A stretch of DNA of 39,024 nt, from assembly GCA_964500395.1 (NCBI GenBank), contig CAZCOO010000005.1, positions 1-39,024 of the forward strand. Direction: 5' to 3'. Within the stretch, counting starts at the first letter, position 1, and every line of letters starts with the position of its first letter. Of the stretch, positions 8,070 through 33,630 are shown one piece after another. The notes beneath the pieces were generated by a model. That model was not told the origin of the DNA and did not search any database. It worked only from the letters and a program-made list of their open reading frames with translations. This DNA is from an uncultured Verrucomicrobiota bacterium. GTDB lineage: Bacteria > Verrucomicrobiota > Kiritimatiellia > CAZCOO01. Made by a program: the position numbers and the translations under genes.

Positions 8070-8081
8070 CGAATCGCCGGA

Positions 8082-10607
8082 TCAGCTCTTTTTGGGCTTG
8101 CCGGTCTTTTCCGCCGCGGGGGCCGGATCTTTGTGCCAGAGCAGCATGACCGGGGTGGCCACAAAGATCGAGGAATAGGTCCCCACCAGGATGCCGATAA
8201 AGAGGGCAATGGCAAACTCGTGAATGGCGCCGCCTCCCAGGATGAGCAGCATCACCACACTGAGCAGCGTGGTGATCGAGGTCAGCAGGGTCCGGCTCAA
8301 GGTCTGGTTGATGCTGAGATTGGCGATCTCGGAATACGGTTTGCCCTTGATCAGACTCAGGTCCTCTCGAATGCGGTCGAAGACCACAATGGTGTCGTTG
8401 ACCGAATACCCCACGATCGTCAGCAGGGCGGCGACGATGGGGAGGCTCAACTGGTTGCCGAGCAGGCAGTAGACCCCGACGGTAATGAGGACATCGTGCA
8501 CGAGGGCCGCGATGGCCCCGATGGCAAAGGCGAACTCAAACCGGAATGAGATATAGATCACGATTCCGATGAGAGCCGTGACAATGGCCCAGACCCCTTT
8601 CTTGCGCAGTTCCTCGCCCACCTGGGGGCCGACACTGTCTTCCTTGATCAGGGTGTAGCCCGCCGTATCGTAGGTCTGCTCGATGGTGTCGCGGGCCGTA
8701 GCGCCCTCGTCGAACCCGACCTTGATCTCGAGAAACTCGTCGATCCCCTCGTCATCCCCGGCGCCGAGTTCCTGGTGATACTGGATGAAGGCGCCTTCCA
8801 CGCCCGCCTTCTCCAGGGTTTCGCGAACGTCATCCACCGACTGGCGGTCGTCGTAGCGGAAGGCCAGGGAGGTTCCCCCCGTGAAATCCACGCCAAAATT
8901 ATCCGCCCCGCGATACATAAACACGCCCCAGGTCGCTACGATCAGGATTGCGCTGAGGGCCAGGGCGACGAACCGCTTGTCGGTGAAGCGGATTTTCGTG
9001 TCCTGCACGATGCGGAGCATGCGGAGCTTTTCCACCCGGCCGCCCCGTGCCAGCCAGTCGAAGAACATGCGGGTCACGACCAGCGCGGTGTACATGCTCA
9101 CGATGATGCCTGCACTGAGGGTGACGGCAAACCCGCGGATGGGGCCCGACCCCTGCCAGAAGAGAATGACGGCAGTGATGAGGGTGGTGATATTGGCGTC
9201 GAAAATCGTGCTGAATACCTTGTCGTACCCGGCGGTCACGGCGTGGGCAAAGGTTTTGCCCGCCCGCTGTTCCTCGCGGATCCGCTCGAAGATCAGGACG
9301 TTTGCATCCACGGCCATGCCGATGGTGAGCACGATACCGGCGATCCCGGGCAGGGTCAGGGTGGGCAACTGGGCGCCGCCCCCGCCGGGCGCCCCCGTGA
9401 AGAGCCCGAGAAAACCGGAGGCAATCACCATCCCCAGGGGCAGCAGGAGCATATCCAGCACCAGGGCCGCATTGGCGACAATCCCGGCGAGCCGGTAGTA
9501 GAGCAGCACAAACAGCACCACCGCGATGGCCCCGTACAACAGCGCGCGCATGCCGCTGTCGATGGAATCTTTGCCCAGGGTGGGATCGACGGACCGGGTC
9601 TCCACGATATTGACGGGCGCGGGCAGAGACCCCGCCTGCAGCACGTTGGCCAGGCGCATGGCCTCGGGCACGCTGAACTGCCCGGTGATCTCGGCGCGGC
9701 CGCCGAGGATTTCCTCGTTGATGCGCGGCGCGGAATAGAGGGTATCGTCCAGGACGATCGCCAACAGGCGCCCCACATCGCTGTTGGGATTCTTGGGCCC
9801 GCGGGGGGCATAATCCCGCGTGATGCGGGCAAAGCGCTTGGTCCCTTCGCCGTCGAGTTCGAGGGTCACCCGCGGGGCCCGGGTGACCTGGTGGTAGGCC
9901 ACGTCGGCGTCGACCACCGCCTCGCCCGTAAGCTGCCGGCGCACCTCTACGTAATAGGGCCGGTACACGGTGTTCCCGTCGCGGGTCTCGTTTTCCTCCA
10001 GCATGAATTCGCAGCCGGGCTTGTACTGCCACTTGCGCAGGCGCTCGTAGTAGTCCTGATCCATCTCCGCATCGGGCACGGACTCAAAATCGCGGGCGTA
10101 GACGTCGCCGGTCTGGCTGATCTGGAACCCGGGCGGAGCCAGCCCCTCCTCAAACAGCTCCTGCGTCCATTCCGAGCTGCGCTCGTGGACCAGGCGAAAT
10201 TCCAGGAAGGCCACGCTCATGATGGCCTGGCGCGCGGCGCGGCGCTTCTCTTCGTCGACCCCCGGGAGCTGAACCACGATCCGCTCGCGGCCCTCGTGGG
10301 TGGTGGCGTAGATGATCGGTTCCTCAATGCCGAGCCCGTCCACACGATTGCGGATGACCTCTACGGCATTATCCTGGGCCTTGTCGGCCGCCTCGTTGAC
10401 GCGTTCCCGCAGGGTCTCCCCGGTGATGTCGGGGGTCTCCTCCCGGATCTGTTCCCGGATGCGTTCGCGATCGATTTCGACGGTAAAACTGGTCCCGCCC
10501 TTGAGGTCCAGCCCCAGCTTCACTTTTTCCTGGGGCGGCCACACGATGGAGAGGGACCAGGCGGTCAGACCGACGAGAATGAGCCATTTGACAGTGGTTT
10601 TGTTCAT
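8082..10607 (-). CDS. secDF: Fused protein-export membrane protein SecD/SecF
   Basis: 841 aa: MNKTTVKWLILVGL..LGLDLKGGTSF, then a second GVDFTGGTS module. Two 6-TM RND-like blocks. Confidence 0.92.
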   Translation of the reverse strand: MNKTTVKWLILVGLTAWSLSIVWPPQEKVKLGLDLKGGTSFTVEIDRERIREQIREETPDITGETLRERVNEAADKAQDNAVEVIRNRVDGLGIEEPIIYATTHEGRERIVVQLPGVDEEKRRAARQAIMSVAFLEFRLVHERSSEWTQELFEEGLAPPGFQISQTGDVYARDFESVPDAEMDQDYYERLRKWQYKPGCEFMLEENETRDGNTVYRPYYVEVRRQLTGEAVVDADVAYHQVTRAPRVTLELDGEGTKRFARITRDYAPRGPKNPNSDVGRLLAIVLDDTLYSAPRINEEILGGRAEITGQFSVPEAMRLANVLQAGSLPAPVNIVETRSVDPTLGKDSIDSGMRALLYGAIAVVLFVLLYYRLAGIVANAALVLDMLLLPLGMVIASGFLGLFTGAPGGGGAQLPTLTLPGIAGIVLTIGMAVDANVLIFERIREEQRAGKTFAHAVTAGYDKVFSTIFDANITTLITAVILFWQGSGPIRGFAVTLSAGIIVSMYTALVVTRMFFDWLARGGRVEKLRMLRIVQDTKIRFTDKRFVALALSAILIVATWGVFMYRGADNFGVDFTGGTSLAFRYDDRQSVDDVRETLEKAGVEGAFIQYHQELGAGDDEGIDEFLEIKVGFDEGATARDTIEQTYDTAGYTLIKEDSVGPQVGEELRKKGVWAIVTALIGIVIYISFRFEFAFAIGAIAALVHDVLITVGVYCLLGNQLSLPIVAALLTIVGYSVNDTIVVFDRIREDLSLIKGKPYSEIANLSINQTLSRTLLTSITTLLSVVMLLILGGGAIHEFAIALFIGILVGTYSSIFVATPVMLLWHKDPAPAAEKTGKPKKS

Positions 10608-11011: not shown

Positions 11012-12151
11012 TCACAGTTTCGCGCGGACGCCCGCGCTCGTTTCGTTGTAGGCTTCCTGAAACTTCTCCCGGTAGGCGGAAAATTCGCCCTGTCGAATGG
11101 CGTTTCGCGCCTCCCGCATCACCGTCTCGTAGAAAAATAAATTGTGCAGGGTCAGCAGCTTGACCCCCAGAATCTCATCCACATTCAGCAGATGCCGGAT
11201 GTAGGCCCGACTGAACCGCGTGCAGACCGGGCATTCGCACCCCTCTTCCACGGGCCGCGGATCGTCCCGAAACCGTCCCGCCTTCACCGGCAGGCGGCCG
11301 GAGCGCGTGAACGCCGACCCGTTCCGGGCACAACGCGTAGGCATGACACAATCGAACATGTCCACGCCCGCCGCCACGGCATCCAGCACCTGCGTCAGCA
11401 ACCCCACACCCATGAGATACCGGGGCTGGTGCGCGGGCAGGTGCGCCACCGTATCGTTCACGCCGCGCCGGATCAATTCCTCCGGCTCGCCCACGCTCAC
11501 GCCTCCGATCGCGTACCCGTCAAATCCCAGGGTCTGCAGATCCCGGGCACAGTCCGCGCGCAGGTCCGGCCAGATGCCGCCCTGCACAATGCCGAACACC
11601 AACTGCCCGTCCGCCCGCGGCTGGGCCGCACACGAAGCCGCCCATGCTAGGGTCCGCTCCACGGCTTGGCAAGCGTATTCCCGCTCGCAGGGGTACGGCG
11701 GACATTCATCAAAGACCATGGCAATATCGGAGCCCAACTGCCGCTGAATGGCCATGGCCTCGACCGGGCCGATAAAGCGTTCCCGGCCGTCCACCGCAGA
11801 CCGGAAGAGGACGCCGTCGGGCCGGATCTGCCGGCAGTCCGAGAGGCTGAAGACCTGGAAGCCCCCGCTGTCGGTGAGGATGGCGCCCGACCACCCCATA
11901 AAGCGGTGGAGCCCGCCCAGGCCGGCGATCAAGTCCGCCCCCGGCCGCTCGTTCAGGTGATAGGTGTTGGACAGGATGATGGATATCCCCAGGGCTTCGA
12001 GTTCCGCGGGGTCCATGGCCTTGACCGTGGCGTGGGTGCCCACCGGCATAAAGGTCGGTGTCTCCACCGGTCCGTGCGCGGTGTGGAGACAGGCGGTGCG
12101 GGCCCGGGAGGCCGCGTCCGAGGCATCAATCTGGAAGGTGCCGGGTTTCAT
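11012..12151 (-). CDS. tgt: Queuine tRNA-ribosyltransferase (tRNA-guanine transglycosylase)
   Basis: VETPTFMPVGTHATVK, ILSNTYHL, TDSGGFQVFS, YLMGVG, and the Zn site CECPVC..H. I prefer the start at ATG 12151 (MKPGTFQ..). Confidence 0.92.
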   Translation of the reverse strand: MKPGTFQIDASDAASRARTACLHTAHGPVETPTFMPVGTHATVKAMDPAELEALGISIILSNTYHLNERPGADLIAGLGGLHRFMGWSGAILTDSGGFQVFSLSDCRQIRPDGVLFRSAVDGRERFIGPVEAMAIQRQLGSDIAMVFDECPPYPCEREYACQAVERTLAWAASCAAQPRADGQLVFGIVQGGIWPDLRADCARDLQTLGFDGYAIGGVSVGEPEELIRRGVNDTVAHLPAHQPRYLMGVGLLTQVLDAVAAGVDMFDCVMPTRCARNGSAFTRSGRLPVKAGRFRDDPRPVEEGCECPVCTRFSRAYIRHLLNVDEILGVKLLTLHNLFFYETVMREARNAIRQGEFSAYREKFQEAYNETSAGVRAKL

Positions 12152-12300
12152 AATTCGTGTCGGGATCCCATGCAGATCCGGTAGAGTGCAGATTCCCGGC
12201 CCCGGGGGCAAGGATGGAGATGCGGGGGAGCCGGCGGGCCCGGGAGGCTCGGGGCGGGCACACGCGAATCCGGCGTACGTGGACCCTGCGGGATCACAGG

Positions 12301-12320
12301 GAAAAAACGGCGCACCGTGT
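12301..12320 (-). terminator. Possible weak intrinsic terminator after the HAMP gene
   Basis: The minus strand reads ACGGTGCGCCGTTTTTT starting 12 nt after the stop codon: a 4-bp stem (ACGG/CCGT) followed by a U6 tract. A T6 run is rare in this GC-rich DNA, but the stem is short. Confidence 0.3.
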
Positions 12321-12331
12321 CTCCCCGGCCC

Positions 12332-13276
12332 TCACTCCGCCCCCGGTCGCTTCAACATGCGCTGCAGGCGGGCCGCGGTGAGGTTGAACCGCCTGGCAAA
12401 ATGCCGGGACTCGGCATCCCCGGATTCTTCCAGCTCCACCGGGAAATCGCCGGCGCCGAGACGCGTCAGGGCTTCGGCCCACGCGGCCCGGCGGCGGTCG
12501 TCCGCCCTCTTCCGCCACACAAGAAGACCCGTCATACCGGCTCCCAGGAGAATCAGAAGCCCCCCGATTCCCCCCTGCACGGTGCCGAAGGCCCGGTTTC
12601 GAATCCCGACTGCCCGCTCCTCTCCCTGCTCGACGATTCTGTGCAGCCGGGCCTCGAGCCGGTGGGCGAGCGCCTCCTTCAACGCCCGCTCATTGACCGA
12701 CACACACACCATCCGCTCCGCCCCCTCTACCCGGCGGGCGACGGAAAAGACTTCCATGCCGGGGAACTGCCGGGTATCCGGCGTCCGATGGGTCCAGGCA
12801 ACGGATCCGGAAGGGGGACGCGGATGGAGGGTATCCCGCCAGGCCGGCATCGCTTTATGCCACCGGTACAGCGACCGCTCCGCGCGGGGAATCACTCGTT
12901 CCGCCAGAATGTCAGGGCCGTCCCACACCGCGATATGATGAGGGACACGGGGCCCGTCGCCGGGCTCCGGCGACAGGAGGGACCGGCTCAGCGAGTCCAG
13001 AATCCGGCGCATCTCCTCCGCACCGGACGCGCCCTGCAAACGGAGGGACAGCAGCTCGGCGAGCCCCCGGGCCCGGGACCGCACCAACGCCTCCATCCGA
13101 TCGGCGAGGGCATCCCGATCCCAGCGGGACAGTTCGCGGAGGCGTTGCCTTGTCATCTCCTGGTGCGCGGCATGCAGTTCGCCCGCAGCCTGGAGAGCGA
13201 CAAGCAGGGACCCCGCGCCCATCAGGCCCAGCAGAACCAGGCCCGCTATAGCCGTACGCTTTGGGAATCCGCCCAT
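12332..13276 (-). CDS. Membrane sensor-like protein: TM, periplasmic domain of about 200 aa, TM, HAMP, with no output domain
   Basis: TM1 is TAIAGLVLLGLMGAGSLLVAL and TM2 is GGIGGLLILLGAGMTGLLVW. A HAMP-like segment follows (RKRADDRRRAAWAEALTRLGAGDFPVELEESGDAESRHFARRFNLTAARL), and the protein ends about 10 aa later. Confidence 0.6.
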   Translation of the reverse strand: MGGFPKRTAIAGLVLLGLMGAGSLLVALQAAGELHAAHQEMTRQRLRELSRWDRDALADRMEALVRSRARGLAELLSLRLQGASGAEEMRRILDSLSRSLLSPEPGDGPRVPHHIAVWDGPDILAERVIPRAERSLYRWHKAMPAWRDTLHPRPPSGSVAWTHRTPDTRQFPGMEVFSVARRVEGAERMVCVSVNERALKEALAHRLEARLHRIVEQGEERAVGIRNRAFGTVQGGIGGLLILLGAGMTGLLVWRKRADDRRRAAWAEALTRLGAGDFPVELEESGDAESRHFARRFNLTAARLQRMLKRPGAE

Positions 13277-13372
13277 GTGGAGGTTGTACCCGCGGAGGAC
13301 GGAGAGGGCAAGCGTTCAGCCGGCGGGTTCGCCCTTTTCCCTCCGGGCCCGCATCACGGCCGGCGTCTGCAC

Positions 13373-13409
13373 TTCTTCCCGGCAGGGCGGTTTGGCCTCA
13401 AGCCGGCGA
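13373..13409. repeat. Intergenic palindromic element, copy A (TTCTTCCCGGCAGGGCGGTTTGGCCTCAAGCCGGCGA)
   Basis: 32/37 identical to 38960..38996. The imperfect arm positions keep pairing as G-U on plus-strand RNA. It lies 24 nt past the TPR-porin stop and 96 nt upstream of the HAMP gene's start. Confidence 0.7.
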
Positions 13410-13435
13410 CTTCTTTTCGCGCGGCGCGGACGGGA

Positions 13436-16400
13436 TCAGAACCGGACCTGGAGCGCTACCCGCCAGGTATCCCGTTCGTAATCGGGTGTCTCGAAGTGGC
13501 TCACCGACCCCAGCAGAGAGAGCCGGCGGGTGAGCCGCAGGTCCGCATTGAGGCGGGCGCCCCATACGAATTTCCAGTCCCCATCCCCTTCGCGCGCATA
13601 CCCGGCCTCGCCGCTGGTGGTATAGTGCAGCAGCCGGTACGTGCCCCGCAGCGCGGCATAGAGCTGGTGTTTCTGGAGTTCCTCGGGCGCGTAGTACTCG
13701 TCCGGGTCCCGGTCGCTGTCCGCAAACCGGAACCGGTACCCTGCCCCGAGGTACGGCCACTCCTGCAGGCGGCGGACAATGCGGCCGTTCACCATGTACG
13801 TATCGTTTTCATCGGTGCGCAGAATCGCGAATCCATTCGCGTAGACATCCCACAGGTCCAGCGCGCGGGAATAGGTGTACAGGCCGAATTGATCGAACAG
13901 GATCTCGTCCCGGACCGCCTCGATGGTCTCGACCTGGTCGCGCCACCATTCCAGCTCGACATACCCGCTGAACGGGCGATTCGGCAGATGCACGTTGGCG
14001 CGGCCGCCGAGGTGGTCGTCGATCTCCGGGTTGTCAAAATCCATCCACCACAACTCGCCCCGCAACCACTGCTGCGGAAAATAAAACCAGAGGAGGTCGC
14101 CGCCGGTGCGGATGCCCTCTTCCACGCCCAGCCCGTCCCGCGTCCAGCGATTGTAGTCTCCGAACAGGCCGAGGCGGAGATGATCGCTGACAAACCCGTG
14201 CGCACGGGCTCCGTCCCGCTCGAAGGTCCTCTCGTCGGAGTCCTCCCAGCCGCGCGCGTCGACTTCGAGCTGGAGGCGTTTCTTGTTCTCGGCCCGATCG
14301 AGCGCGTCCTGGATCTTTTCATCATCCGGGGCCAGGTCCCGGGCGTTCCGCAGATGCTCGAGCGCACTGGGCAGGTCGCCCTGCTGGTATGCATTGGCCC
14401 CCCAGTTGAACTCGACCTGGAGGGGATCGGCGCCCAGGTCCCGGACCTCCCGGAACCACCGGTTGGCCCGGACGTGCTGACGGTGCCAGTACAAAACCTT
14501 GGCCAATTCCAGCTTGGCCCGGATCAGGGGATTGCCCTCGCTGATGTGGGCTACCACATTGGTTGCCCCCCAATACGGGGCGACCGATTTTGCGGGCAGG
14601 CGGAGGGGGTCCCGCTCCGGCCCCATGAATCCGCTGTCGTCGAGAAAGAGGGCATAATCAAAGAACTCCTCCGCGGCCTCGTGCAGGACTTCCAGCGAGT
14701 CCGGCTCTGTATCCAGCGAAAAGTGGCCGTAGTCGCCCGATGGATAGAACAGAATCTTCGGCCCCTCGCCGGGGAGCTGCTCCGCGGCGGCGGCGAGGGC
14801 GTTCCGAACCCGGTCGCGCATCTCGTCGAGGGTTTCCCGCCGGCCCTCTTCATAGAGGCGGTGTGTCAGCGGGTTGCCGCGGACGCCCTCCGCGTTGACG
14901 GGGCGGCGCTCATCGTCGGGCGGGCCGCTGCCGGCGATCTGCCAGCGCGGGGACTGGAGGATCTCCCGGTAGGCCAGGCCGCCCTCGCCGGTTCCGAACT
15001 GGAAGCGAAGATAGGACGGCTCCCCGGCAAGAACCGCGCGGATATCGTGCTCCTTGAGCAACGTGTCCAGGTCGGGAATGGCGCTGCTCTCCGGCTCCAC
15101 CAGCACCAGCACAACCCGTTTTTCCCGGGCATCGGGATCGACGTCCTCCCCGATGTGCAGGAACGAAAACCCGTTGCTGGTAATGGCCTGAACATGGTCC
15201 GCCACCTGCTTCACCGAGTTAAACCCCGGATAGTCGCATGCGGTGACATTGCGGTAGGCGAGCACGGGAACCGCCTGCGAGGGGTGCGGCTCGGACACAT
15301 CCGCCAGCTCGCGGATGGCGGGCCGGAATTGCTCGTCCTCCGCGAGGGAAATCGCATGCCGGCGGATGGTCTCGATATCCCACGGCCGCTGATCGACCAG
15401 TGCGTCCGCATAGTCGAGGGCCTCCTGGAAGGCTTCCCGCCGCGAGGCGAGTTCGCGGAGGCGAAGCAGGGCGGGGAAGAATTCCGGATTGCGGGCCAGC
15501 AGGTCCTCGTAGGTGTGCTGGGCATTGGTCCACTGCTCCATGCCGAGATAGGCCCGCCCGACGGCCCGGGCCATGGGGACATAGCCCGGATCCTGTTCCA
15601 GATAGGCGCGGGAATCCGCGAGCGTGGTCTCCCAATCCTCCAGGTACTCAGCCAGCTCGGAGCGCAGCCGGTACAGAAGAATGGATGGATGGGTCTGGAT
15701 GCCCAGGGTGGCCCAGTCGAAGGCGGCCTCCCGGTTGGCCAGGGCCGATTCGAGCTCGGCCAGGGAGTAGTATACTTTCTCGTTCGGATTCAGATCGGCC
15801 AGTTCTTCGAGAATGGTACGGGCTTCGCCCGGCTGACAGAGTTTCTTGAGCGTCTCGGCGGTCTCGAGCCCGTAGTAGGTCACCTCGGGCGAGGTGTAGT
15901 GCGCCATGTACCAGATATTCAGGGCCTCGGAGAGGTTCCCGAGCCGGCTCAGCATGTGGGCCAGCTCGGAACGGAATTCTTCCCGGCCCAGCTCGACCTG
16001 GCGTTCGAACCAGGCGGCCTCCCGGGCGGCGGCTTCAAAGCGGTCGGCGTCGATCAGCAGATCGAATAACTGGGCGCGGAGAAAGGGCTGCTCAGGATCC
16101 GCGGCGAGGCTGGCGGCAAACCGTTCGATCGCGGTATCGTCATCCTCATCCCACAGGGCGCGCTTTCCCTGCAGCCGCAGCTCGGCGGCCTGGGGCAGGT
16201 CCTTTTCCAGCGCGCGCTCGAGCACGGTCCGCGCTTCATCGGGCCGGTTGAGCCGTTCGGCCAGTTCGATGGTTTTCACCCACAATGAACGGGACGGATC
16301 GCGCTCGAGAACGCGCCGGTAGAGGGTGTAGGCGCGGGCAAACCGCCGGCCCTCGAACAGGTAGTCGGCGAAGCCCTGCAGGATATCCGTCACGCGGGAA

Positions 16401-18169
16401 ACGTAGTCGGGGCGCTCCTGCAGGATTTCATCCACCCGGTCCACCAGGGGAAGCAGGCTGGGCTCTTCGTCACAGAGGTAGGCGATCTCGAGGAAGACAT
16501 CAATCTCCAGCAGGGGCGCCTCGGCCAGCCGCTCCTGCACCCAGCGCTCCACGTAGCGGGTGCTCTGGCCGCAGTGGGCATTGAGGGCGCGCGCATAGGC
16601 CAGGTAGAGCCCGGCCCGGGCCGGGTCGTCGTCCCGCTCCCAGGCCCGCTGGAGAAACGGCATGGCCGCCACCAGCCGGTTTTTTTCCACCAGGAGGGAG
16701 CCGAACTCATACCAGGACAATGCGGGGGCCCACGTGCGGAAGAGTTCGAGGGCCCGGTCGGTCTCGTGGTTTTCCACGAGCAGGGCGAGGACCTGGGCCA
16801 TGGTATCGTGCCGGGCGGCAAGCTCCTGGTCGCGCAGGGCTGTGTCCCAGGCTTCGATGGCGGCCTCCGGCCGTTCCTTGACCCAGTACGACCACCCGAG
16901 ATCCCGCCAGGCCGCCGTCCGGGACGGATCGAGTTCCACCTGGCGGCGCAGGAGTTCAATTCGCTTGTCGACTTCTTTTACGCGCCCGGCGCGATTGGCC
17001 AGGGCCCGGATCAGGTGGCGGCGGACGCGTTCGTCGTCGGGATGGTCCGCATGCAGTGCCTCCAGAATGTCGATGGCCTCCCGATCGTTCTCTTTTTCCC
17101 CGGCGTGCAGGGCGCGGGCCAGCCCCTGGATATAGGCGACATCATCGGTATCGACCGCCTGAAGAAACGCATCGGCGGCGGCGCGCCCCTCCGTATCGAG
17201 GAGCAGCCGGGTCTTCAGGATGAGGCCCCGGCGATGGTCCGGGGCGCTCTCCAAAACTCGGTCGAGGGTGGCCAGGGCCTTGCCGGTCTCGCCGCCGTCC
17301 AGATACGCCTCGGAGGCCCAGAACCACCAGGAGGCCGGCGGGGCATCCGCGGCCTCGGCGGTCTCTACCCAGGTGCGAGCCGCGCGCAGGGGTTCGCGAT
17401 TGTGCCGGTAGGCCCAGCCCAGGTTGACGCGGGCCTGCAACCAGTCCGGCCGCAGGGTGACGGCGCGTTCGTAGGCCTCGACGGCAGGCCGGGGCGCCCG
17501 GGCCTGCAGGTGGCGGTCGCCGAGTACGCTCCAGGCCAGGGCGGTGAGGTTGCTTTGAACCGCATTTGTCGGGGCCAGACCGGCGACCGTCGCCTTTCCG
17601 GGGGCGGGCGCCACGGCCAGTTCGCACACGGCGTGGGCCGCCTGCTGAAGACCCTCCCGGGGGGCCGTCTGGGCCCATCGCGAGGCGAGGAGGGTCACCA
17701 TGTTGGTATCCCCGCCGGCCCAGGCCGTCTGCAGCATGCGCTGAACCGAGGACGGGGAGATCAATTCGATCTCCTCATCGGGCAGCGCCATCCACTGGGT
17801 GCGGATGCGGTGCCGCTTCCCCGTCTCCATCCACATCAAGAATTGCCATTCCCGAATCTCTATGGGCTCGGACACGCCCAGATCCAGCGCCGTATCGAAG
17901 GCCTCCTCCGCCTCTTCGTATTCTTCCCGCAGCATTTGCACCCGGCCGAGCTGGGCCCAGGCGGCCGGGTACGCCGGATCCAGGGACACCGCCCGCCGGG
18001 CCAGATCCAGCGCCTCGCCGTACTGTTGCGCGCCCAGCCGCTCCCGGCTTTCGTGCAGGACCTCGCGCACAGAGACGACGTCATCAGCGGCCCGCCCGGA
18101 GGCGCCGAACAGCCCGCCCAGCATGCAAACACCTGCCAGAACCATCCATATTCTCGAACGCCTCATCAC
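13436..18169 (-). CDS. Giant secreted TPR scaffold with an embedded CE4-like insert and a C-terminal outer-membrane beta-barrel (PgaA/PelB/BcsC-like exporter)
   Basis: 1,577 aa. The signal peptide is MMRRSRIWMVLAGVCMLGGLFGASGRAADD. TPR-type helices span about aa 40-960 and 1210-1295. A non-TPR insert at aa 965-1200 (nt 14570..15277) resembles a polysaccharide-deacetylase fold (VPVLAYRNV.., KRVVLVLVEPESSAIPDLDTLLKEHDIRAVLA, ILFYPSGDYG). The last 275 aa or so are alternating beta-strands ending in ..RVALQVRF. The GTG at 18169 or ATG at 18166 overlaps the upstream stop. Confidence 0.75.
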   Translation of the reverse strand: MMRRSRIWMVLAGVCMLGGLFGASGRAADDVVSVREVLHESRERLGAQQYGEALDLARRAVSLDPAYPAAWAQLGRVQMLREEYEEAEEAFDTALDLGVSEPIEIREWQFLMWMETGKRHRIRTQWMALPDEEIELISPSSVQRMLQTAWAGGDTNMVTLLASRWAQTAPREGLQQAAHAVCELAVAPAPGKATVAGLAPTNAVQSNLTALAWSVLGDRHLQARAPRPAVEAYERAVTLRPDWLQARVNLGWAYRHNREPLRAARTWVETAEAADAPPASWWFWASEAYLDGGETGKALATLDRVLESAPDHRRGLILKTRLLLDTEGRAAADAFLQAVDTDDVAYIQGLARALHAGEKENDREAIDILEALHADHPDDERVRRHLIRALANRAGRVKEVDKRIELLRRQVELDPSRTAAWRDLGWSYWVKERPEAAIEAWDTALRDQELAARHDTMAQVLALLVENHETDRALELFRTWAPALSWYEFGSLLVEKNRLVAAMPFLQRAWERDDDPARAGLYLAYARALNAHCGQSTRYVERWVQERLAEAPLLEIDVFLEIAYLCDEEPSLLPLVDRVDEILQERPDYVSRVTDILQGFADYLFEGRRFARAYTLYRRVLERDPSRSLWVKTIELAERLNRPDEARTVLERALEKDLPQAAELRLQGKRALWDEDDDTAIERFAASLAADPEQPFLRAQLFDLLIDADRFEAAAREAAWFERQVELGREEFRSELAHMLSRLGNLSEALNIWYMAHYTSPEVTYYGLETAETLKKLCQPGEARTILEELADLNPNEKVYYSLAELESALANREAAFDWATLGIQTHPSILLYRLRSELAEYLEDWETTLADSRAYLEQDPGYVPMARAVGRAYLGMEQWTNAQHTYEDLLARNPEFFPALLRLRELASRREAFQEALDYADALVDQRPWDIETIRRHAISLAEDEQFRPAIRELADVSEPHPSQAVPVLAYRNVTACDYPGFNSVKQVADHVQAITSNGFSFLHIGEDVDPDAREKRVVLVLVEPESSAIPDLDTLLKEHDIRAVLAGEPSYLRFQFGTGEGGLAYREILQSPRWQIAGSGPPDDERRPVNAEGVRGNPLTHRLYEEGRRETLDEMRDRVRNALAAAAEQLPGEGPKILFYPSGDYGHFSLDTEPDSLEVLHEAAEEFFDYALFLDDSGFMGPERDPLRLPAKSVAPYWGATNVVAHISEGNPLIRAKLELAKVLYWHRQHVRANRWFREVRDLGADPLQVEFNWGANAYQQGDLPSALEHLRNARDLAPDDEKIQDALDRAENKKRLQLEVDARGWEDSDERTFERDGARAHGFVSDHLRLGLFGDYNRWTRDGLGVEEGIRTGGDLLWFYFPQQWLRGELWWMDFDNPEIDDHLGGRANVHLPNRPFSGYVELEWWRDQVETIEAVRDEILFDQFGLYTYSRALDLWDVYANGFAILRTDENDTYMVNGRIVRRLQEWPYLGAGYRFRFADSDRDPDEYYAPEELQKHQLYAALRGTYRLLHYTTSGEAGYAREGDGDWKFVWGARLNADLRLTRRLSLLGSVSHFETPDYERDTWRVALQVRF

Positions 18170-20130
18170 TCTGCCTCTCTCTTTGCCGACCGGAGGGCCT
18201 CCGACCGCATCGCCCCCGCCACGCCGTACGGCCGATCCGCGAGGCGGAGGCCCTCGGCGACGAGATGATGGGCGGGGATGTGATACATGAGGGCCTCGAG
18301 GGCCTCTCTCTGCTGCGGCCCCTCCGTGATCAACAGAATCCCCGGCGCGGGATCGGGGGGACTCTCGGCAATGGAGAGGGCCGTTTCGGGCGAGATGATG
18401 CTCACGATCTGGACGGCTTCAGCCCGGCAGGCCTCGATCAGCTTCGGGTGGTACCCCGATACGGCGATGGAATCGATGAGCGCCCCCATCAGCGGGTCAT
18501 CGCGCACGGCCCGGAGTTCGCTCATCACCGCCTCCACCTGCTGGAGGTCGAGTTCGCCGGCCGGGTTGATCCTCGGGATGGCGGCGATTCCCTCGGCCGC
18601 CGCGGCCAGCACCGCATCCCGGCGGGACCGGGACAGGTCAAACTCGGGACGTTCTTCCATCCCGAACCAGGGGGGCACCCAGTAGGTCACCCGCCGGCGG
18701 ACATCGTCGGGCAGTTCCAGCAGCGCGGGGCCGACCAGGTACAGCGGGGGCAGCGCCTCCGCCTCAAAATCGTACAGGGTCACGGCGCCCTCGTCTTCGT
18801 GAATAAACTGAATCTTGCCGTGGTCGACGGTTCTGGAGACCGGGGCCGGATCGATCACGGCGGTGCCGTCACAGCTCACCCACAGCCGATTGCGCTTGAT
18901 CCGCACCTCGACGGTGTGGCGGTTGGTGGGGCCCTCCGTATAGGGATGCCAGGCAACCGTGTGCATCTGGTTGTAGAGGCGCTCCTGGATGCGCATCCCT
19001 TCGGCTGAGGAGGTCAGCCGGATGTACGCATGGGGCCCGGCGAAACGGAGATACAGGCAGGCGAGACCGTCCCCGCGGAGCTGCCAGGAAAACCGGATCC
19101 GGGCATCCATCCAGTCGCTGCTGCCGCGAAGCAGCACCCGGCCGTCCGGAGCGATCCGCACGCCTCCCTCGCGCTCCGCCACAGGGCCTTCGGCAAACCA
19201 GCGCTCCCCCGTGGAGATGTAGTCGACGGAGGTGAGGTTCGGGGAAAACCGTTCAATCTCCGCCAGGAGGTCCTCCCCCGTCCAATCCCCCCGGGCGCGC
19301 AGGCGGGTCAGGTGATAGGGATTGTCACGCAGGCCATTAAAGGGATCCCCGCTGCCGGTTATCGCGAGCTGATGGTAATCCCGCACGACCTGGCGATTGA
19401 GCTGGGCCGCCATGGGATCGGCGAGCCGGCCCGTCCCGGGATCGGCAAAGGGGTACAGATAGAGGAGGGGCGGGGCGCCGCCCGTCGTCAGCAGCTCGGC
19501 GGCCGTCCGGTAATCTTCCGTGACCCGGCGGGCAAATTCTTCTTCGGTCTCCCGGCGGCCCTTGTGCCATTTGCGATTGCTGAGGAAATGCCCCTCCAGC
19601 CTCGACTCATCGATGGCAATGGTTTTGTTTGCATCGTGTCCCATGCTGGCCAGGGTCCAGTGGTCCATGCCGGCGATCTTCCCGATGTCGCCCTCTTTCA
19701 CCTGGTGGTGCCCCCACTCGTCCGTGACAAACGTGGGAACGGCCATCACGGCGCTGTAGCCGAAGTGTTGCAGGATCGGCGTCGACCGGATGAGGCTGTC
19801 CTTCCGTCCGCCCTCAAAGATCAGCAGGACCGCCTTCTCCGGCAAGGGCGTGCCTTCGCGGTAAAACCGCAGGACATCTCCGGGCGTGATGGTCTTGAAT
19901 CCCGCCCCATGCAATGCGCCGAGCTGTTCATTCAGGCGGCCCGGGCTCACGTAGCGCGGATCCTCATCCCGGGTAATCCCCTCGTAGGACACGGCGTAGA
20001 ACCCCTTCCAGGAGTGCCACGCCTCCGGCTCCCGCTCCGGCTCGGGCTTGGGGCGGAGGAGATACCAGGCATAGCCCACGACGATCAGCGTGACCACGAA
20101 CCACTGGAAGAGGACAAACACTTTTTTCAT
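18166..20130 (-). CDS. Membrane-anchored polysaccharide-deacetylase-like (CE4) protein with degenerate catalytic motif, plus a jelly-roll (LamG/DUF1080-like) domain and a C-terminal domain of unknown function
   Basis: The N-terminal TM is MKKVFVLFQWFVVTLIVVGYAWYLL. The CE4-like core is KAVLLIFEGGRKDSLIRSTPILQHFGYSAVMAV..LASMGHD..LYLYPFADPG. FEGG (nt 19807..19818) stands where NodB motif 1 has FDDG. The middle domain is RIRFSWQLRGDG..LYLRF..VEVRIKRNRLWVSCDGTAVID..GKIQFIHEDEGAVTLYDFE. The ATG at 20130 forms an ATGA overlap with the synthase gene's stop. Confidence 0.65.
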   Translation of the reverse strand: MKKVFVLFQWFVVTLIVVGYAWYLLRPKPEPEREPEAWHSWKGFYAVSYEGITRDEDPRYVSPGRLNEQLGALHGAGFKTITPGDVLRFYREGTPLPEKAVLLIFEGGRKDSLIRSTPILQHFGYSAVMAVPTFVTDEWGHHQVKEGDIGKIAGMDHWTLASMGHDANKTIAIDESRLEGHFLSNRKWHKGRRETEEEFARRVTEDYRTAAELLTTGGAPPLLYLYPFADPGTGRLADPMAAQLNRQVVRDYHQLAITGSGDPFNGLRDNPYHLTRLRARGDWTGEDLLAEIERFSPNLTSVDYISTGERWFAEGPVAEREGGVRIAPDGRVLLRGSSDWMDARIRFSWQLRGDGLACLYLRFAGPHAYIRLTSSAEGMRIQERLYNQMHTVAWHPYTEGPTNRHTVEVRIKRNRLWVSCDGTAVIDPAPVSRTVDHGKIQFIHEDEGAVTLYDFEAEALPPLYLVGPALLELPDDVRRRVTYWVPPWFGMEERPEFDLSRSRRDAVLAAAAEGIAAIPRINPAGELDLQQVEAVMSELRAVRDDPLMGALIDSIAVSGYHPKLIEACRAEAVQIVSIISPETALSIAESPPDPAPGILLITEGPQQREALEALMYHIPAHHLVAEGLRLADRPYGVAGAMRSEALRSAKREAE

Positions 20131-21791
20131 GCCGCAGCTTCCTTCTTCTCCCGGGTCCCCCACTCCGGCGTCCAGAAGGTGATGACGGCCCAGGGCAACT
20201 GCCAGACCAGCACGAGAAGATAAAAATAGCAGAAAAACACCCCGTAGCCCCAGAGCGCGGACCGGCGGGCAAAGAGGTAACTCGTACTCATCAGCGAACT
20301 CATGAGCAGAATCCCGAACAGGTAGATCAGGGGCGTGCCGTGATGGAAAAACGGCACATAGATCAAGGCCCGGAAGACGATGGCCGGACTCAGCACGGGC
20401 AGAATCAAGCCCAGGTAGAAGGACAGGGACATCAGCGGCTGACGCCGCCAGAAAAAGCCGCAGGCCCGAATGGATTCCCGGAACCAGGACCGCTTCCAGC
20501 GCATCTGCTGGCGCAAAAAGGTCCGGTAGTCTTCCGGCACGATCGTGGTACAGCGGGAGCGTGAATCGTACTTCAGCTTGTGCCCGGCCTTGAGGAGAAA
20601 ATTCGTAATCGAGCGATCGTCGCCGAAGGTGGCCGGGGACCCGAGGAACGTCTGCTTCACCCAGGGCTCGAGGAACGGCTCCAGGGTACTGCGGCGGTAC
20701 GCGGAGAGCGGGCCGGAAAGACAGGTAATGGAGTCAAAGATGCTCTCCGCGCCCTTCATAATGCGAAACCCGATGTAGTACCGCACCGCCTGCATCTTGG
20801 TGAGCATATTGTCCCAGGCGTTTTCCACATCGCAATGGCCGGTAACCGCCGCGACCTCTTCGTCCTGAAACCCGTCCACGAGATTGCGGATGGCATTGGT
20901 TTCCAGAAAACTGTCCGAATCGATAAAGATGACGATCTCGCCGGTCGTGATGCGGGTGCCCGCCACCAGGCCGTCCCGTTTGCCCTGCGATTCTTCGAAG
21001 TTGATAATGGTCAATTCCGGGTATTTCTCCCGCGCCCGGTTCATCGCCGCGAGGGTGGCATCCGTACTCCCGTCATTGATGGCCACAACCTCCATCTTGT
21101 CTGCCGGGTACCGGCTTTCCATCACCTGCATGATGGTTCGCTCGATGTGCTCTTCCTCGTTCTTGGTGGGGATGATGACCGAAACCGTCGGCAGGTCCTC
21201 CCGGGGTTTCGGCGGGCGGTAGAACCCGGCGAAGAGAAACCGGCTCACCAGGTACCCGCCCACGGTGAGGCTGTAGAGGAAAATGGGGACGTCGAACCAG
21301 AAGTAGTACAGGTTGCCGTACTTAATGAGCAGGATGAGACTGATGGTCAGAAAGCAGCCGATCACCGCGCCCCAGCGCAGATACGTCCAGGTGGTGCGGG
21401 CGAGCCGCCGGCTGAGCGACTCGCTGAACTGCACCCCCGCGATTCCCGCGGCCTCGTCGTGCCGGCGAATCTCGGCATCGAGTTCGTACTGCCGGTTCTG
21501 AAACTCCTCCGGCATGGCCGCTTCGGGTACCTTGAAGCGAAGCTTGACCCGCTTCTCGCCGCCCGGCAACTCCACATTCTCGAGGCGCAGCCCGCCATCG
21601 GAGATGTCGGACGCGGTCCCCGTGAAGACCTGTTCGGTCTCCCCCTGCCCCACGATGATTTCCACGGGAAAGTCGACCCGGTAGCGGGAGTATTGCCGCC
21701 GATCGCTGGGATCGGGCCTCGCCAGGGCGCGCAGTCGCCGATCCTGAATCTTATGAGGGACCTTTCCCCCGGTATTGTCTTCGCCGTTCAT
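20127..21791 (-). CDS. N-terminal PilZ domain fused to a processive family-2 glycosyltransferase of the hyaluronan/chitin (HasA/NodC) synthase type
   Basis: PilZ motifs are RRQYSR (nt 21684..21701) and DISDGG (nt 21591..21608). GT2 motifs are VSVIIPTKNEE, INDGSTD, FIDSDS, CLSGPLSAYRR, GDDRSITNF and QQMRWKRSWFRES (QQMRW at nt 20496..20510). TM helices flank the GT domain. The GDDR..TN and QQxRWxxSxFRES strings closely resemble streptococcal HasA as I recall it. Confidence 0.8.
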   Translation of the reverse strand: MNGEDNTGGKVPHKIQDRRLRALARPDPSDRRQYSRYRVDFPVEIIVGQGETEQVFTGTASDISDGGLRLENVELPGGEKRVKLRFKVPEAAMPEEFQNRQYELDAEIRRHDEAAGIAGVQFSESLSRRLARTTWTYLRWGAVIGCFLTISLILLIKYGNLYYFWFDVPIFLYSLTVGGYLVSRFLFAGFYRPPKPREDLPTVSVIIPTKNEEEHIERTIMQVMESRYPADKMEVVAINDGSTDATLAAMNRAREKYPELTIINFEESQGKRDGLVAGTRITTGEIVIFIDSDSFLETNAIRNLVDGFQDEEVAAVTGHCDVENAWDNMLTKMQAVRYYIGFRIMKGAESIFDSITCLSGPLSAYRRSTLEPFLEPWVKQTFLGSPATFGDDRSITNFLLKAGHKLKYDSRSRCTTIVPEDYRTFLRQQMRWKRSWFRESIRACGFFWRRQPLMSLSFYLGLILPVLSPAIVFRALIYVPFFHHGTPLIYLFGILLMSSLMSTSYLFARRSALWGYGVFFCYFYLLVLVWQLPWAVITFWTPEWGTREKKEAAA

Positions 21792-21946
21792 GTCTCCCCC
21801 AACATGGTCTGGCCGACCGGCTCGTTTCTATGTCCAGAATATCCTGTCACGCCGTAAGATACAGCACATATTTTCAAAATTTCCCCCCTGCCTGTTCGGA
21901 CGAGTTCGCCATTGGTTTTCCGGCACAACTTTGCTAGAGAGTCCCC
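21792..21946. promoter_or_regulatory. Divergent intergenic control region between the synthase operon and the GGDEF/HD-GYP regulator gene
   Basis: 155 nt, locally AT-richer (..ATATTTTCAAAATTTCCCC..), flanked by two outward-facing start codons. Both promoters must lie here. I could not define a convincing consensus promoter. Confidence 0.5.
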
Positions 21947-24547
21947 ATGGCCGAGTATCCTGAAACAAGCGCAAATGTTGCGGGCCGTCCTTCACGGTCG
22001 ACGGATCCCCTTCCCTCCCCCCAACGGATTCTCGTCCTCGATGACGACCGGCACATCCGCCGCATCATGCGGCGGCGGTTGCGGGAATCCGGATGCGATG
22101 TGACCACTGTAGCCAACGGACGTGAAGGATTGCAAGCCCTCCTTCGCGATGACTACGATGTTGCCGTCGTCGACCTCCGCATGCAGGAAATGGACGGCAT
22201 GGCCTTTGTCCAGGAGGCCCTGAAGATCTGGCCGTGGCTTCAGATTATCATCTGCAGCGGGTACCTCGATGAGGACGTCATCCGCCAGGCGGAGGCCCTG
22301 GGCGTATCGCATGTGCTGTCCAAGCCGGTGGAGTACGATTCATTCGCGGCCCTGGTACGACGCCTGGCAGAGACATCGAAATCCGAGGGCGCTCGGGGCC
22401 GCCATCCCCCGGAACGGCTGCAGCAGCAGCTTCGGCTTCTCCGGCAGATTACCGAATCCGGTCTTCATGAACGAAACCTGCCCGCCGCCCTCAACCGGTT
22501 GGGAGACGGGCTGACCCAGCTACTCCCCGCCGATCTGCTGGGCATCCTGGTCACGGAAAACTCGGACTGCACGCTGTTCCTTCGGCCCCACCGCATCCCG
22601 GAGCCGCACCATATTTCCGATATCAAATCTCACATGTCGAATCGGTACCAGGCGCTCAGCGGCGAGCCCCTGCCCCTTCATTACATGCAACTGGACATCA
22701 AGCCGGCACGGGTCGAGGAGGAGTCCGATATTGAGCAGTTCGGAACCATTGTGTCGGTCCCCATCATCTCCGACGACCAGGTCCACGGGCTGATCACCCT
22801 GTGCTCGGGCGAGGCCGACGCCTACTCGCCTTCCGATATTGCCTTTCTCTACCAGACGTCCAACCAGCTCTCGACCATCCTCGTCGCCCTCGGGGAAATC
22901 CGGAGCATGGCCATTCGGGACAGCCTCACGGGCCTCTACAACCGGCGCCATCTGGACGAACAGCTCGAGCGCATGTGGCTGCTCTCCCGGCGCTATCACC
23001 ACCCCATGGCCGTGCTGGCGGTGGATCTCGACCATTTCAAGGACATCAATGACTCGCTCGGCCATGCCGTAGGCGATGAGGTGATCAAGGAATTTGCCGA
23101 CCTGCTCAAGACCGAAACCCGGGCCTCCGACATCCTCGCCCGGCACGGAGGCGATGAGTTTTTGATCGTCCTCTCGCAGGCCAATGTAGAGGAAGCGGAA
23201 GGGCTGGCCACGCGGATGCTGGAGAAGGTCCGCGAGCATCCGTTCCTGTCGCAGGACCACTCCCTGGCGCTCACCGCCTCGATCGGCGTCGCCCTGTACC
23301 GGCCGGAGCGGGGCGCGCTGTCGCATGAAGACCTGGTGCATCAGGCCGACCAGGCGCTCTACCTCGCCAAACAGGAAGGGCGCAACCGGATGGCCGTGTA
23401 CCGCACCGAGCACGATGCCCCGGTGGAAGAGGAGCCCGTCGAGTCGCCGGAAACGGACCCGCCCCCGGAACGATCCCGCTCGAGCGTGAAGGCCCGCGTT
23501 CTGGTCGTGGACGACGAGGCCAGCGTCATCCGCATTCTTCATCGCATGTTGGTGCGCGAGGGGTACGACATCCTGTCGGCTCAGTCTGTGGAGGAGGCCA
23601 TTCCCCTGCTGCAGGAGCACCGGGGCCATATCGATATATTGCTCACGGATCTCGCCCTCCCCACGAGCGACGGGTTCGAAATGCTTCGCCAGGCGCAGGA
23701 GCGGGATCCCCGCATGGTCCGGATCGTGATCAGCGGCTACGTCACCGCCGACAATGCCATTTCCGCGCTGCGCCACGGCGCCTACGACTTCGTGCAGAAG
23801 CCCTTCGTGCGCGAACAGCTCCTGGCCCAGCTCGACCGCGCCCTGGAGTATCGAACCCTGCTGCGGGAAAACGACCTCTACCGCAATCACCTGGAGGACA
23901 TGATCCGGGCCAAGAGCGCCGAGGTCACCACGGCCCTGAACCAGATCAAAACCTCCTATGAATTTACCCTGGAAACGATGGTGGCCATGCTGGATGCGCG
24001 GGAGTACGAGACCAGCCGGCACAGTCTGCGGGTGCGGGAACTCACGGAAGTGCTGGCACGCCACATGGGCATCGAGCCCCCCGAACTCGACGATATCGCC
24101 CGCGGCGCCCTGTTGCACGACATCGGGAAAATCGGGATCCCGGATGCCATCCTTCAGAAGCCCGGCCAACTGACCCCGGAAGAGTGGGACACCATGAAGC
24201 GCCATCCGGAAATCGGCTACCGGTTTCTGAAATCGAGCCCCTTCCTCAAGGACTCGGCCGAGATTGTGCTCTCCCACCATGAGAAGTACAGCGGGGGCGG
24301 CTATCCCCGGGGGCTCAAGGGGACGGACATCTGCCTCGGGGCCCGCATCTTTTCCGTGATCGATGCCTACGATGCGATCCGCTCCCCGCGGGTGTACAAA
24401 CCGTCGCTGCCGCGGGAACAGGCCGAACAGGAAATCCGCTCTCAATCCGGCAAGCAGTTCGACCCCGATGTCGTGGACGCATTCCTCTCCATCATTCCGG
24501 AGATCGAGCGGCGCGGGCAGTGGAGCGACTCCGGCCTGCAGACCTGA
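21947..24547 (+). CDS. Hybrid response regulator REC-GAF-GGDEF-REC-HD-GYP (c-di-GMP synthase plus phosphodiesterase)
   Basis: REC1 is RILVLDDD..DVAVVDLRMQEMDG..SKP. A GAF-like segment spans about aa 170-320. The GGDEF domain has an I-site (RASD, then 5 aa, then GGDEF at nt 23147..23161). REC2 is RVLVVDDE..DILLTDLALPTSDG..QKPF. The HD-GYP domain has LLHDIGKIGIPD and HHEKYSGGGYPRGL. Confidence 0.88.
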   Translation: MAEYPETSANVAGRPSRSTDPLPSPQRILVLDDDRHIRRIMRRRLRESGCDVTTVANGREGLQALLRDDYDVAVVDLRMQEMDGMAFVQEALKIWPWLQIIICSGYLDEDVIRQAEALGVSHVLSKPVEYDSFAALVRRLAETSKSEGARGRHPPERLQQQLRLLRQITESGLHERNLPAALNRLGDGLTQLLPADLLGILVTENSDCTLFLRPHRIPEPHHISDIKSHMSNRYQALSGEPLPLHYMQLDIKPARVEEESDIEQFGTIVSVPIISDDQVHGLITLCSGEADAYSPSDIAFLYQTSNQLSTILVALGEIRSMAIRDSLTGLYNRRHLDEQLERMWLLSRRYHHPMAVLAVDLDHFKDINDSLGHAVGDEVIKEFADLLKTETRASDILARHGGDEFLIVLSQANVEEAEGLATRMLEKVREHPFLSQDHSLALTASIGVALYRPERGALSHEDLVHQADQALYLAKQEGRNRMAVYRTEHDAPVEEEPVESPETDPPPERSRSSVKARVLVVDDEASVIRILHRMLVREGYDILSAQSVEEAIPLLQEHRGHIDILLTDLALPTSDGFEMLRQAQERDPRMVRIVISGYVTADNAISALRHGAYDFVQKPFVREQLLAQLDRALEYRTLLRENDLYRNHLEDMIRAKSAEVTTALNQIKTSYEFTLETMVAMLDAREYETSRHSLRVRELTEVLARHMGIEPPELDDIARGALLHDIGKIGIPDAILQKPGQLTPEEWDTMKRHPEIGYRFLKSSPFLKDSAEIVLSHHEKYSGGGYPRGLKGTDICLGARIFSVIDAYDAIRSPRVYKPSLPREQAEQEIRSQSGKQFDPDVVDAFLSIIPEIERRGQWSDSGLQT

Positions 24548-24554
24548 GCGGGGT

Positions 24555-27240
<2,686 letters not shown>

Positions 27241-33605: not shown

Positions 33606-33630
33606 AACCATCTCCCCGGAGAAAAGAGCC

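Follow-up and report, generated by a model that had tools for sequence, protein, structure and literature searches.

A hyaluronan synthase-like glycosyltransferase with an N-terminal PilZ domain in a putative c-di-GMP-gated exopolysaccharide operon of an uncultured Kiritimatiellia bacterium

Synthase-dependent exopolysaccharides build bacterial biofilms, and the characterised systems, those for cellulose, alginate, poly-N-acetylglucosamine (PNAG) and Pel, each couple cyclic di-GMP (c-di-GMP) to polymerisation in a different way. A 39,024-nucleotide stretch of DNA from an uncultured Verrucomicrobiota bacterium of the Kiritimatiellia (GenBank assembly GCA_964500395.1, contig CAZCOO010000005.1, positions 1 to 39,024; hereafter the window) contains an open reading frame (ORF) at positions 20127..21791 of the minus strand that raises the question of what kind of synthase it encodes, and whether c-di-GMP controls it. 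A sequence-only reading, made earlier, had described the product as a processive synthase of the HasA/NodC type carrying an N-terminal PilZ domain. We propose, with a probability of about 0.6, that its product is the inner-membrane synthase in a c-di-GMP-gated, synthase-dependent exopolysaccharide system. This proposal starts from features that the analysis shows directly: how the domains are arranged, which motifs they carry, what the fold resembles, the family to which the protein belongs, synteny, and overlaps between genes.

The ORF is a real gene on the minus strand. It begins with an ATG codon and encodes 554 amino acids (aa) plus a stop codon, and its G+C content at third codon positions (0.82) is similar to that of the other genes in the window, which has about 65% G+C and is coded mostly on the minus strand. 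Translation recovered each string quoted in the sequence-only reading, with RRQYSR at aa 31-36 and DISDGG at aa 62-67 as that reading had it; the strings of the glycosyltransferase family 2 (GT2) domain are INDGSTD at aa 238-244, DSDS at 291-294, GDDRSITNF at 390-398 and QQMRWKRSWFRES at 428-440. The assignment as a processive GT2 synthase with a PilZ domain and similarity to hyaluronan synthase (HAS) draws on Pfam, NCBIfam, PDB matches, an AlphaFold2 (AF2) model and Foldseek. A 2045-bp contig from an independent public run (Logan SRR13334647; L087) encodes a 554-aa protein identical to this one, which places the organism in at least that one sample.

The N-terminal region scores as PilZ in the model search that had been suggested as a check: PF07238 matches aa 30-133 (21393..21704, minus strand) with 41.3 bits, above the gathering score of 22.5 (E=2.1e-10). 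Both signature motifs are intact. The residues of the RxxxR motif are R32-QYS-R36 (within aa 31-36; 21684-21701, minus strand) and those of the DxSxxG motif are D62-I-S64-DG-G67 (21591-21608, minus strand). In an alignment of 59 homologues sharing 54-66% identity, R31, R32, R36, S64 and G67 do not vary at all, and D62 is kept in at least 90% of the sequences. The AF2 model computed on this alignment (mean pLDDT 89.4, pTM 0.88) shows a six-stranded barrel (strands 37-47, 54-63, 67-71, 81-87, 101-112 and 117-122), then a long helix (126-162) that continues as the first transmembrane (TM) helix, and then TM helix 2 (168-189). Because the barrel at aa 37-122 precedes these helices, the PilZ domain lies upstream of the first TM segments, as had been claimed. 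The two helices together (aa 126-189; 21225..21416, minus strand) form the linker between the PilZ and GT domains and align to TM helices 1-2 of Xenopus HAS1 (XlHAS1).

The stretch at aa 17-36 (21684-21743), before the barrel, holds more arginines than the standard RxxxR motif. A near-invariant DRR is duplicated there (D17R18R19 and D30R31R32), and R25 is also conserved. The extra arginines (DRR 17-19 and R25) might bind a c-di-GMP dimer or form an autoinhibitory tail.

Which type of synthase follows this sensor domain? Pfam GT2 models, invariant columns and the motif alignment delimit a cytosolic GT-A domain with interface helices at aa 194-444 (20460..21212, minus strand). Glycos_transf_2 matches aa 204-370 (E=2.5e-27), Glyco_tranf_2_3 matches with E=1e-26, and Chitin_synth_2 matches aa 219-541 (E=1.8e-20). 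The GT residues invariant in the 59 homologues are D240, D291-S292-D293, G390-D391-D392-R393, Q428-Q429-x-R431-W432, W544 and R547. In the AF2 model the GT-A and interface region spans aa 203-444 and is followed by a bundle of C-terminal TM helices (aa 452-537; within 20151..20438, minus strand). The last two invariant residues belong to a terminal WGTR motif (aa 544-547; 20151-20162, minus strand) that matches the gating loop of HAS, where WGTSGRK/R (WGTRG in the Chlorella-virus enzyme, CvHAS) is essential (PMC11750622).

Scores against the curated NCBIfam models were all far under the cut-offs: 171.7 bits versus 550 for NodC (TIGR04242, spanning model positions 43-394 of 395), 135.6 versus 422.3 for PgaC/IcaA (TIGR03937) and 47.4 versus 699 for CelA/BcsA (TIGR03030). 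The synthase is therefore outside these three curated families. Its top sequence matches in the PDB are XlHAS1 (5.5e-37) and CvHAS (1e-34), with BcsA at 2.9e-6, and the best 13 Foldseek matches of the AF2 model are all HAS (E down to 2e-22), followed by BcsA (about 1e-14) and chitin synthases (about 1e-12). Over 182 core columns, identity is 41% to HasA, 36% to CvHAS, 34% to XlHAS1, 32% to NodC, 25% to PgaC and 17% to BcsA. The references for this comparison were Sinorhizobium medicae NodC, HasA of Bacillus anthracis pXO1, PgaC and BcsA of E. coli, and the XlHAS1 and CvHAS segments taken from the PDB matches; a BLASTP alignment to E. coli PgaC gave 28% identity across 260 aa.

In a neighbour-joining tree built on these 182 core columns only, with three HAS sequences, BcsA as root and 200 bootstraps, the PilZ-bearing family is monophyletic in 200/200 replicates, and 184/200 place it together with HAS and NodC, leaving PgaC outside. 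Its grouping with the three HAS sequences, as their sister and not nested among them, has 123/200 support. These results support the conclusion that class I HAS and NodC are the nearer relatives of the synthase, with PgaC and BcsA more distant; the family would be at best a sister group of HAS. The claim that the GT strings are HAS/NodC-like and far from cellulose synthase is thus borne out by the model ranking, the PDB and Foldseek matches and the core identities alike, and the phylogeny sides the GT domain with HAS and NodC in a clade of its own, no described clade with this fusion having been found in the literature searched.

Class I HAS and the window synthase are membrane-embedded GT2 enzymes of similar layout, from two TM helices at the N-terminus through the GT-A domain and interface helices to a TM bundle at the C-terminus. 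They have in common the motifs DxD, C-x-SGPL, GDDR, QQxRWxKSxxRE and WGTR (the gating loop), and WGTR is also where pXO1 HasA ends. In the motif alignment the window synthase shows the HAS-type C-L-SGPL, GDDR, QQxRWKRSWFRE (with QQMRW at its start) and terminal WGTR. Unlike class I HAS, it has a 125-aa N-terminal PilZ region, forms its own clade, and reads FLYS for GLYG and DSDS for DxDT. NodC is similar in core length and also has its C-terminus just past the gating-loop position, but it carries GEDR, CCGPC and DWLSR where the window synthase has GDDR, LSGPL and WGTR. Moreover, nodA and nodB are not neighbours of the window gene, and the product would be a polymer, unlike the NodC oligosaccharide, because the export machinery described below implies one.

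These similarities raise the possibility that the enzyme is a genuine hyaluronan synthase, making hyaluronan from glucuronic acid (GlcA) and N-acetylglucosamine (GlcNAc) under c-di-GMP control. Its best fold and sequence matches are HAS structures, and every HAS motif but GLYG is found, DxDT in the form DSDS. Relatives are named merely 'glycosyltransferase' at NCBI, but many are labelled 'hyaluronan synthase' at JGI. In addition, R337 and K346 align with XlHAS1 R287 and R296, which are close to GlcA-2 of the nascent chain (PMC11750622); NodC has Glu at the first of these positions. We nevertheless regard hyaluronan as clearly unlikely, since the family forms a separate clade that groups with HAS in just the 123 replicates noted above, with 34-41% core identity. 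Annotation of the window genes also confirmed the earlier observation that no UDP-glucose 6-dehydrogenase gene is present, unlike in the pXO1 cluster of hasA, galU and a dehydrogenase gene, and the dehydrogenase encoded next to some relatives is of another type (see below). Furthermore, known has operons (hasB/hasC) lack PgaB-like, CE4 (carbohydrate esterase family 4) or GH18-like (glycoside hydrolase family 18) partners and a tetratricopeptide repeat (TPR) exporter, none of which the pXO1 cluster shows, whereas in the window operon the synthase is accompanied by a PgaB-like protein together with a TPR exporter.

The first of these partners is a membrane-anchored periplasmic protein of 654 aa (18166..20130, minus strand), the ATG of which overlaps the synthase stop codon (ATGA; GCATGAAA). 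It has no Pfam match up to an E-value of 10, PF01522 included, and reaches 35-54 bits on the NCBIfam PgaB models, far under cut-off. However, it matches the N-terminal deacetylase domain of PgaB in the PDB (3vus, 7e-10) and E. coli PgaB by BLASTP (6e-14). Its AF2 model (pLDDT 91.2, pTM 0.90) consists of an N-terminal TM helix, an alpha/beta domain, a beta-sandwich and a C-terminal alpha/beta domain. In Foldseek, the first alpha/beta domain superposes on the N-terminal domain of PgaB (PgaB-N), IcaB, BpsB and PplD with TM-scores of about 0.8 (0.79 for PgaB-N), and the beta-sandwich resembles CBM66 and lectins. An alignment of 81 members of the partner family showed that the CE4 set is lost: PgaB D114 corresponds to an invariant Glu, D115 to Gly or Asp and H184 to Met or Asn, and H189 is variable. 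Other positions (E117, R120, G175, E205 and R213) are invariant, and W169 is 98% conserved. Because the catalytic set is not kept, we describe the partner as having a PgaB-like fold without being a canonical deacetylase.

The second partner is a secreted TPR protein of 1,577 aa (13436..18169, minus strand). Its start overlaps the stop codon of the PgaB-like gene (GTGATG), its N-terminus resembles a signal peptide, and Pfam detects many TPRs. The C-terminal ~270 aa are conserved, with RF at the very end, and the last residues are R-F or R-I in 10/10 aligned sequences. By analogy with PgaA, BcsC, PelB and AlgK-AlgE, the protein probably serves as a periplasmic scaffold and outer-membrane export barrel. 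Synthase-dependent secretion systems unite in one operon an inner-membrane GT2 synthase-translocase, a c-di-GMP receptor, a TPR scaffold in the periplasm and a porin in the outer membrane; the window operon displays the synthase, the PilZ domain and the TPRs, and the barrel is putative. Within it, aa ~966-1240 (window 14450-15270) are an internal paralogue of the PgaB-like domain of the first partner (BLASTP 4e-11), so the degenerate CE4 fold occurs twice in the operon. The sequence-only reading had called the partners CE4-like and had taken the polymer to be probably GlcNAc-containing on that ground. The similarity stands as far as the fold is concerned, with a PgaB-N-like domain in both downstream proteins, but the Asp-His-His metal site of CE4 is not conserved; with the catalytic metal triad missing, the partners are weak evidence for an N-acetylated polymer.

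Judging by the start/stop overlaps, the genes for the synthase, the PgaB-like partner and the TPR protein are translationally coupled. We used tblastn to search 80 related loci for the window proteins. The partner gene is downstream of the synthase gene in 79/80 loci (the exception is L029), and in Gram-negative loci the TPR protein gene comes after it. This order is kept in Verrucomicrobiota, Kiritimatiellia, Lentisphaerae, Thermodesulfovibrionales, Aminicenantes, Desulfovibrionaceae and Planctomycetota. Three operon types can be distinguished. Type A, in Firmicutes, comprises the PilZ-synthase, the partner and a weakly GH18-like protein, in most cases with a nucleotide-sugar dehydrogenase and in nearly all with a large protein containing two to three true CE4 domains (PF01522). 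Type B, in Desulfovibrionaceae and Planctomycetota, consists of synthase, partner, TPR protein and GH18-like protein. Type C, found in PVC bacteria and other Gram-negatives and including the window, consists of synthase, partner and TPR protein.

The dehydrogenase of the type A operons scores 451 bits on the model for TviB, a UDP-GlcNAc C-6 dehydrogenase, against 233 bits for UDP-ManNAc dehydrogenase and 46-151 bits for the UDP-glucose dehydrogenase models. It is the best clue to the product: it hints, indirectly as far as the window is concerned, that polymers of this family hold an N-acetyl-amino sugar together with its uronic acid. The Gram-positive operons as a whole suggest a partly deacetylated polymer of the GlcNAc/GlcNAcA type (GlcNAcA being the uronic acid of GlcNAc). 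In the loci of Sporomusa (L054:5760-14620), Lactobacillus equicursoris (L049:5262-14629) and Paenibacillus (L082:5988-13618), CE4 and GH18-like genes flank the pair of PilZ-synthase and partner. The large true CE4 deacetylase shows 2-3 CE4 stretches in L054 and L049. The TviB-like dehydrogenase is present in these same two loci and is not visible in L082, for which the gene table is incomplete, with an unannotated gap at 7466-8812.

An alternative is that the system makes a GlcNAc-only homopolymer, either a divergent PNAG of the Pga type or a chitin-like chain, with PilZ replacing PgaD as the c-di-GMP sensor. Like the window operon, PgaABCD combines a synthase with a PgaB-like periplasmic protein and a TPR outer-membrane protein, so that the three-gene layout parallels pgaC-pgaB-pgaA. 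The partner's N-domain is nearest to PgaB, IcaB and BpsB, the top NCBIfam matches of the synthase are NodC and PgaC, and the window lacks a precursor gene, which fits because UDP-GlcNAc requires none. The PgaABCD system is also c-di-GMP dependent, as we propose for the window operon. In other respects the two diverge. The window has no PgaD-like gene, and its synthase is HAS-like, with 41% core identity to HasA versus 25% to PgaC, which lacks GDDR and WGTR; the NodC and PgaC scores are far under the family cut-offs. Unlike PgaB, the window partner is TM-anchored, is without the D114/D115/H184/H189 set, and has a beta-sandwich and a different C-terminal domain. PgaA barrel homology was not found, and the TviB-like dehydrogenase of Firmicutes argues for an acidic sugar. 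We therefore consider a GlcNAc homopolymer rather unlikely.

A more specific form of our proposal, which we advance tentatively and at somewhat less than even odds, is that the family represents a distinct and widespread class, in which a HAS-family synthase with an N-terminal PilZ domain controlling the WGTR loop makes a new amino-sugar/uronic-acid polymer (e.g. GlcNAc/GlcNAcA) that is handled by a re-purposed PgaB-like protein. The class would range over PVC bacteria, Desulfovibrionaceae, Planctomycetota and Firmicutes (Sporomusa, Pelosinus, Pectinatus, Paenibacillus and Lactobacillus equicursoris).

A possible source of the signal lies next to the operon. Divergent from the synthase gene, a gene at 21947..24547 of the plus strand encodes a REC-GAF-GGDEF-REC-HD-GYP protein (Pfam), in which GGDEF, the RxxD I-site (RASD), HDIGK and GGGYP are intact. 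From these motifs it is probably a local c-di-GMP synthase/phosphodiesterase. A GGDEF/HD-GYP gene occupies the same divergent position in four relatives. In L007, L019 and L028 its full-length identity is 43-45%; the fourth, L086, is a JGI metagenome contig and the nearest relative, with a 67% identical synthase, and there the four-gene unit stands amid housekeeping genes. The intergenic region in the window (21792..21946; 155 bp) presumably contains the promoters. Rfam gave zero matches across the window, so a c-di-GMP riboswitch or other upstream RNA element was not found, and a promoter/terminator scan of positions 12000-24700 gave counts not above chance.

The mechanism we infer, which extends to c-di-GMP binding, activation, the identity of the polymer, the role of the partner and the outer-membrane barrel, is as follows. 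The HAS-type GT2 enzyme would polymerise a UDP-sugar, most likely UDP-GlcNAc and possibly alternating with a uronic acid, and thread the chain through its own TM channel. The cytosolic PilZ domain, fused to TM helix 1, would bind c-di-GMP via R32xxxR36 and D62xS64xxG67, and this would release a resting state. On the model of BcsA, the release would likely unblock either the WGTR gating loop at the C-terminus or the entrance to the active site. In BcsA, the first Arg of RxxxR keeps the gating loop in its resting state until c-di-GMP binds (PMC10374906). Next to receive the nascent chain would be the periplasmic partner, which is co-translated, membrane-anchored and PgaB-like/lectin-like, and the chain would leave the cell via the TPR-scaffold/outer-membrane-barrel protein. 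The divergent GGDEF/HD-GYP enzyme would locally both provide c-di-GMP and clear it.

BcsA, like the window synthase, is a processive GT2 synthase-translocase with a fused PilZ domain and TPR/porin export, and provides the precedent for a PilZ-controlled gating loop. However, the PilZ domain of BcsA is C-terminal, after the gating loop, whereas that of the window synthase is N-terminal, before TM1; the motifs are TED and FxVTxK in BcsA and GDDR and WGTR here, and the window locus has no BcsB homologue. By topology, the cytosolic face carries the PilZ domain, the GT domain and also the WGTR tail at the C-terminus. With PilZ attached to TM1 and the gating loop present as a free C-terminal tail, the contacts between them must differ from those in BcsA, and the domain order would entail the different allosteric geometry anticipated in the sequence-only reading. 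The alginate system Alg8/Alg44 offers another parallel, as an N-terminal cytosolic PilZ domain followed by a TM segment governs a GT2 polymerase and export involves a TPR protein and a porin; there, however, PilZ is on the separate protein Alg44, which has a periplasmic HlyD-like domain, instead of being fused to the synthase.

Several observations weigh against a c-di-GMP-gated exopolysaccharide system at this locus. On the export side, the C-terminal 'barrel' domain of the TPR protein has no detectable homologue: hhalign against PgaA gave 0.2% probability, and a PDB profile search with this domain returned TPR matches only. BLASTP likewise found nothing to link the TPR protein to PgaA, and homology between the two was rejected. 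Concerning the product, no sugar-nucleotide gene was found within the window, and deacetylation at this locus is not supported, to judge from a partner that lacks the CE4 metal/catalytic triad. On the side of the sensor, the PilZ domain of the Romboutsia enzyme RiGT2 has both motifs, yet it showed neither c-di-GMP binding nor dependence in vitro, although it is required for enzyme activity (PMC10374906). RiGT2 itself was ruled out as a family member, as its PilZ domain is C-terminal and it is BcsA-like. In an alignment of 20 sequences across all three operon types, [D/N]xSxxG is retained, but canonical RxxxR occurs only in the branch holding the window synthase. Solidesulfovibrio has one residue extra in this motif, and Firmicute homologues have 'DRRG', an insert (~20 aa in most) and 'GxRY' in its place. 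The spacing is therefore non-canonical in the Desulfovibrionaceae and Firmicute branches, and c-di-GMP control is perhaps not family-wide.

The RiGT2 precedent and the interrupted RxxxR motifs would also fit a PilZ domain that is a structural or interaction module no longer engaged in signalling, in an enzyme that is constitutive or regulated transcriptionally only. For the window synthase we judge this very improbable, because both motifs are kept over 54-66% identity in its branch and an intact diguanylate cyclase/HD-GYP gene is conserved next to it.

The fusion of a PilZ domain to a HAS-like synthase is not rare, and the window gene does not stand out within its family, which is large, widespread and uncharacterised. 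A protein search (E<1e-10, clustered at 90% identity) identified more than 3,165 clusters of relatives, and PF07238 together with GT2 models is present in 118 of the best 120. A search with the N-terminal module alone (aa 1-195) gave 66 representatives at the 50% level (E<1e-3). Among GTDB contigs, with one genome per species, relatives are encoded in at least 522 stretches. They are found in Verrucomicrobiota, Kiritimatiellia, Lentisphaerae, Thermodesulfovibrionales, Aminicenantes, Gemmatimonadales and Planctomycetota, in cultured Solidesulfovibrio species and in many Firmicutes (Sporomusa, Pelosinus, Pectinatus, Sporanaerobium and Lactobacillus equicursoris); a megaplasmid of Paenibacillus cellulositrophicus also encodes one.

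An N-terminal PilZ domain on a HAS/NodC-like synthase is not described in the full-text literature covered, outside which most subscription papers lie, and is unmentioned in reviews of c-di-GMP, PilZ censuses and a census of synthase-dependent operons. A published study of the three-gene secretion operon was not found either. The gts operon of Lactobacillus acidophilus was ruled out as an equivalent, as it is Pss-like: its receptor has a degenerate EAL domain, and its GT is BcsA-like and has no PilZ. The family would add a HAS-type enzyme to the c-di-GMP-coupled synthase systems. With the sensor domain that BcsA also has, but placed at the other end of a homologous synthase, it would amount to a natural experiment in allostery. 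A further return could be bacterial HAS-like enzymes that are switchable by a small molecule and make new glycosaminoglycan-like polymers. These questions are directly testable, because the family occurs in the cultured, tractable Solidesulfovibrio, Sporomusa, Paenibacillus and Lactobacillus equicursoris.

The rest of the window contains housekeeping genes, including tgt, yajC, secDF, recJ, citrate synthase, valS, a leuA-like gene, aspartokinase, hom and queC. The valS product is merely 47-49% identical to those of Kiritimatiellia and Verrucomicrobiota metagenome-assembled genomes. Downstream of the operon, an ORF of 314 aa (12332-13276, minus strand) was ruled out as a fourth member, as a homologue was found in 0/80 related loci and not in L086. 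It has two TM segments, a HAMP-like C-terminal tail, no output domain and no Pfam or NCBIfam match, and may be a truncated sensor. Beyond it, ~1.2 kb downstream of the exopolysaccharide operon, lie tgt-yajC-secDF, in which secD and secF are fused (841 aa). The queuosine genes tgt (11012-12211, minus strand) and queC (33690-34490, minus strand) are ~21 kb apart. Finally, a response regulator gene at 32961-33635 (minus strand) encodes its domains in an odd order, with an N-terminal, DNA-binding HTH_17 domain of the excisionase type followed by a C-terminal receiver.

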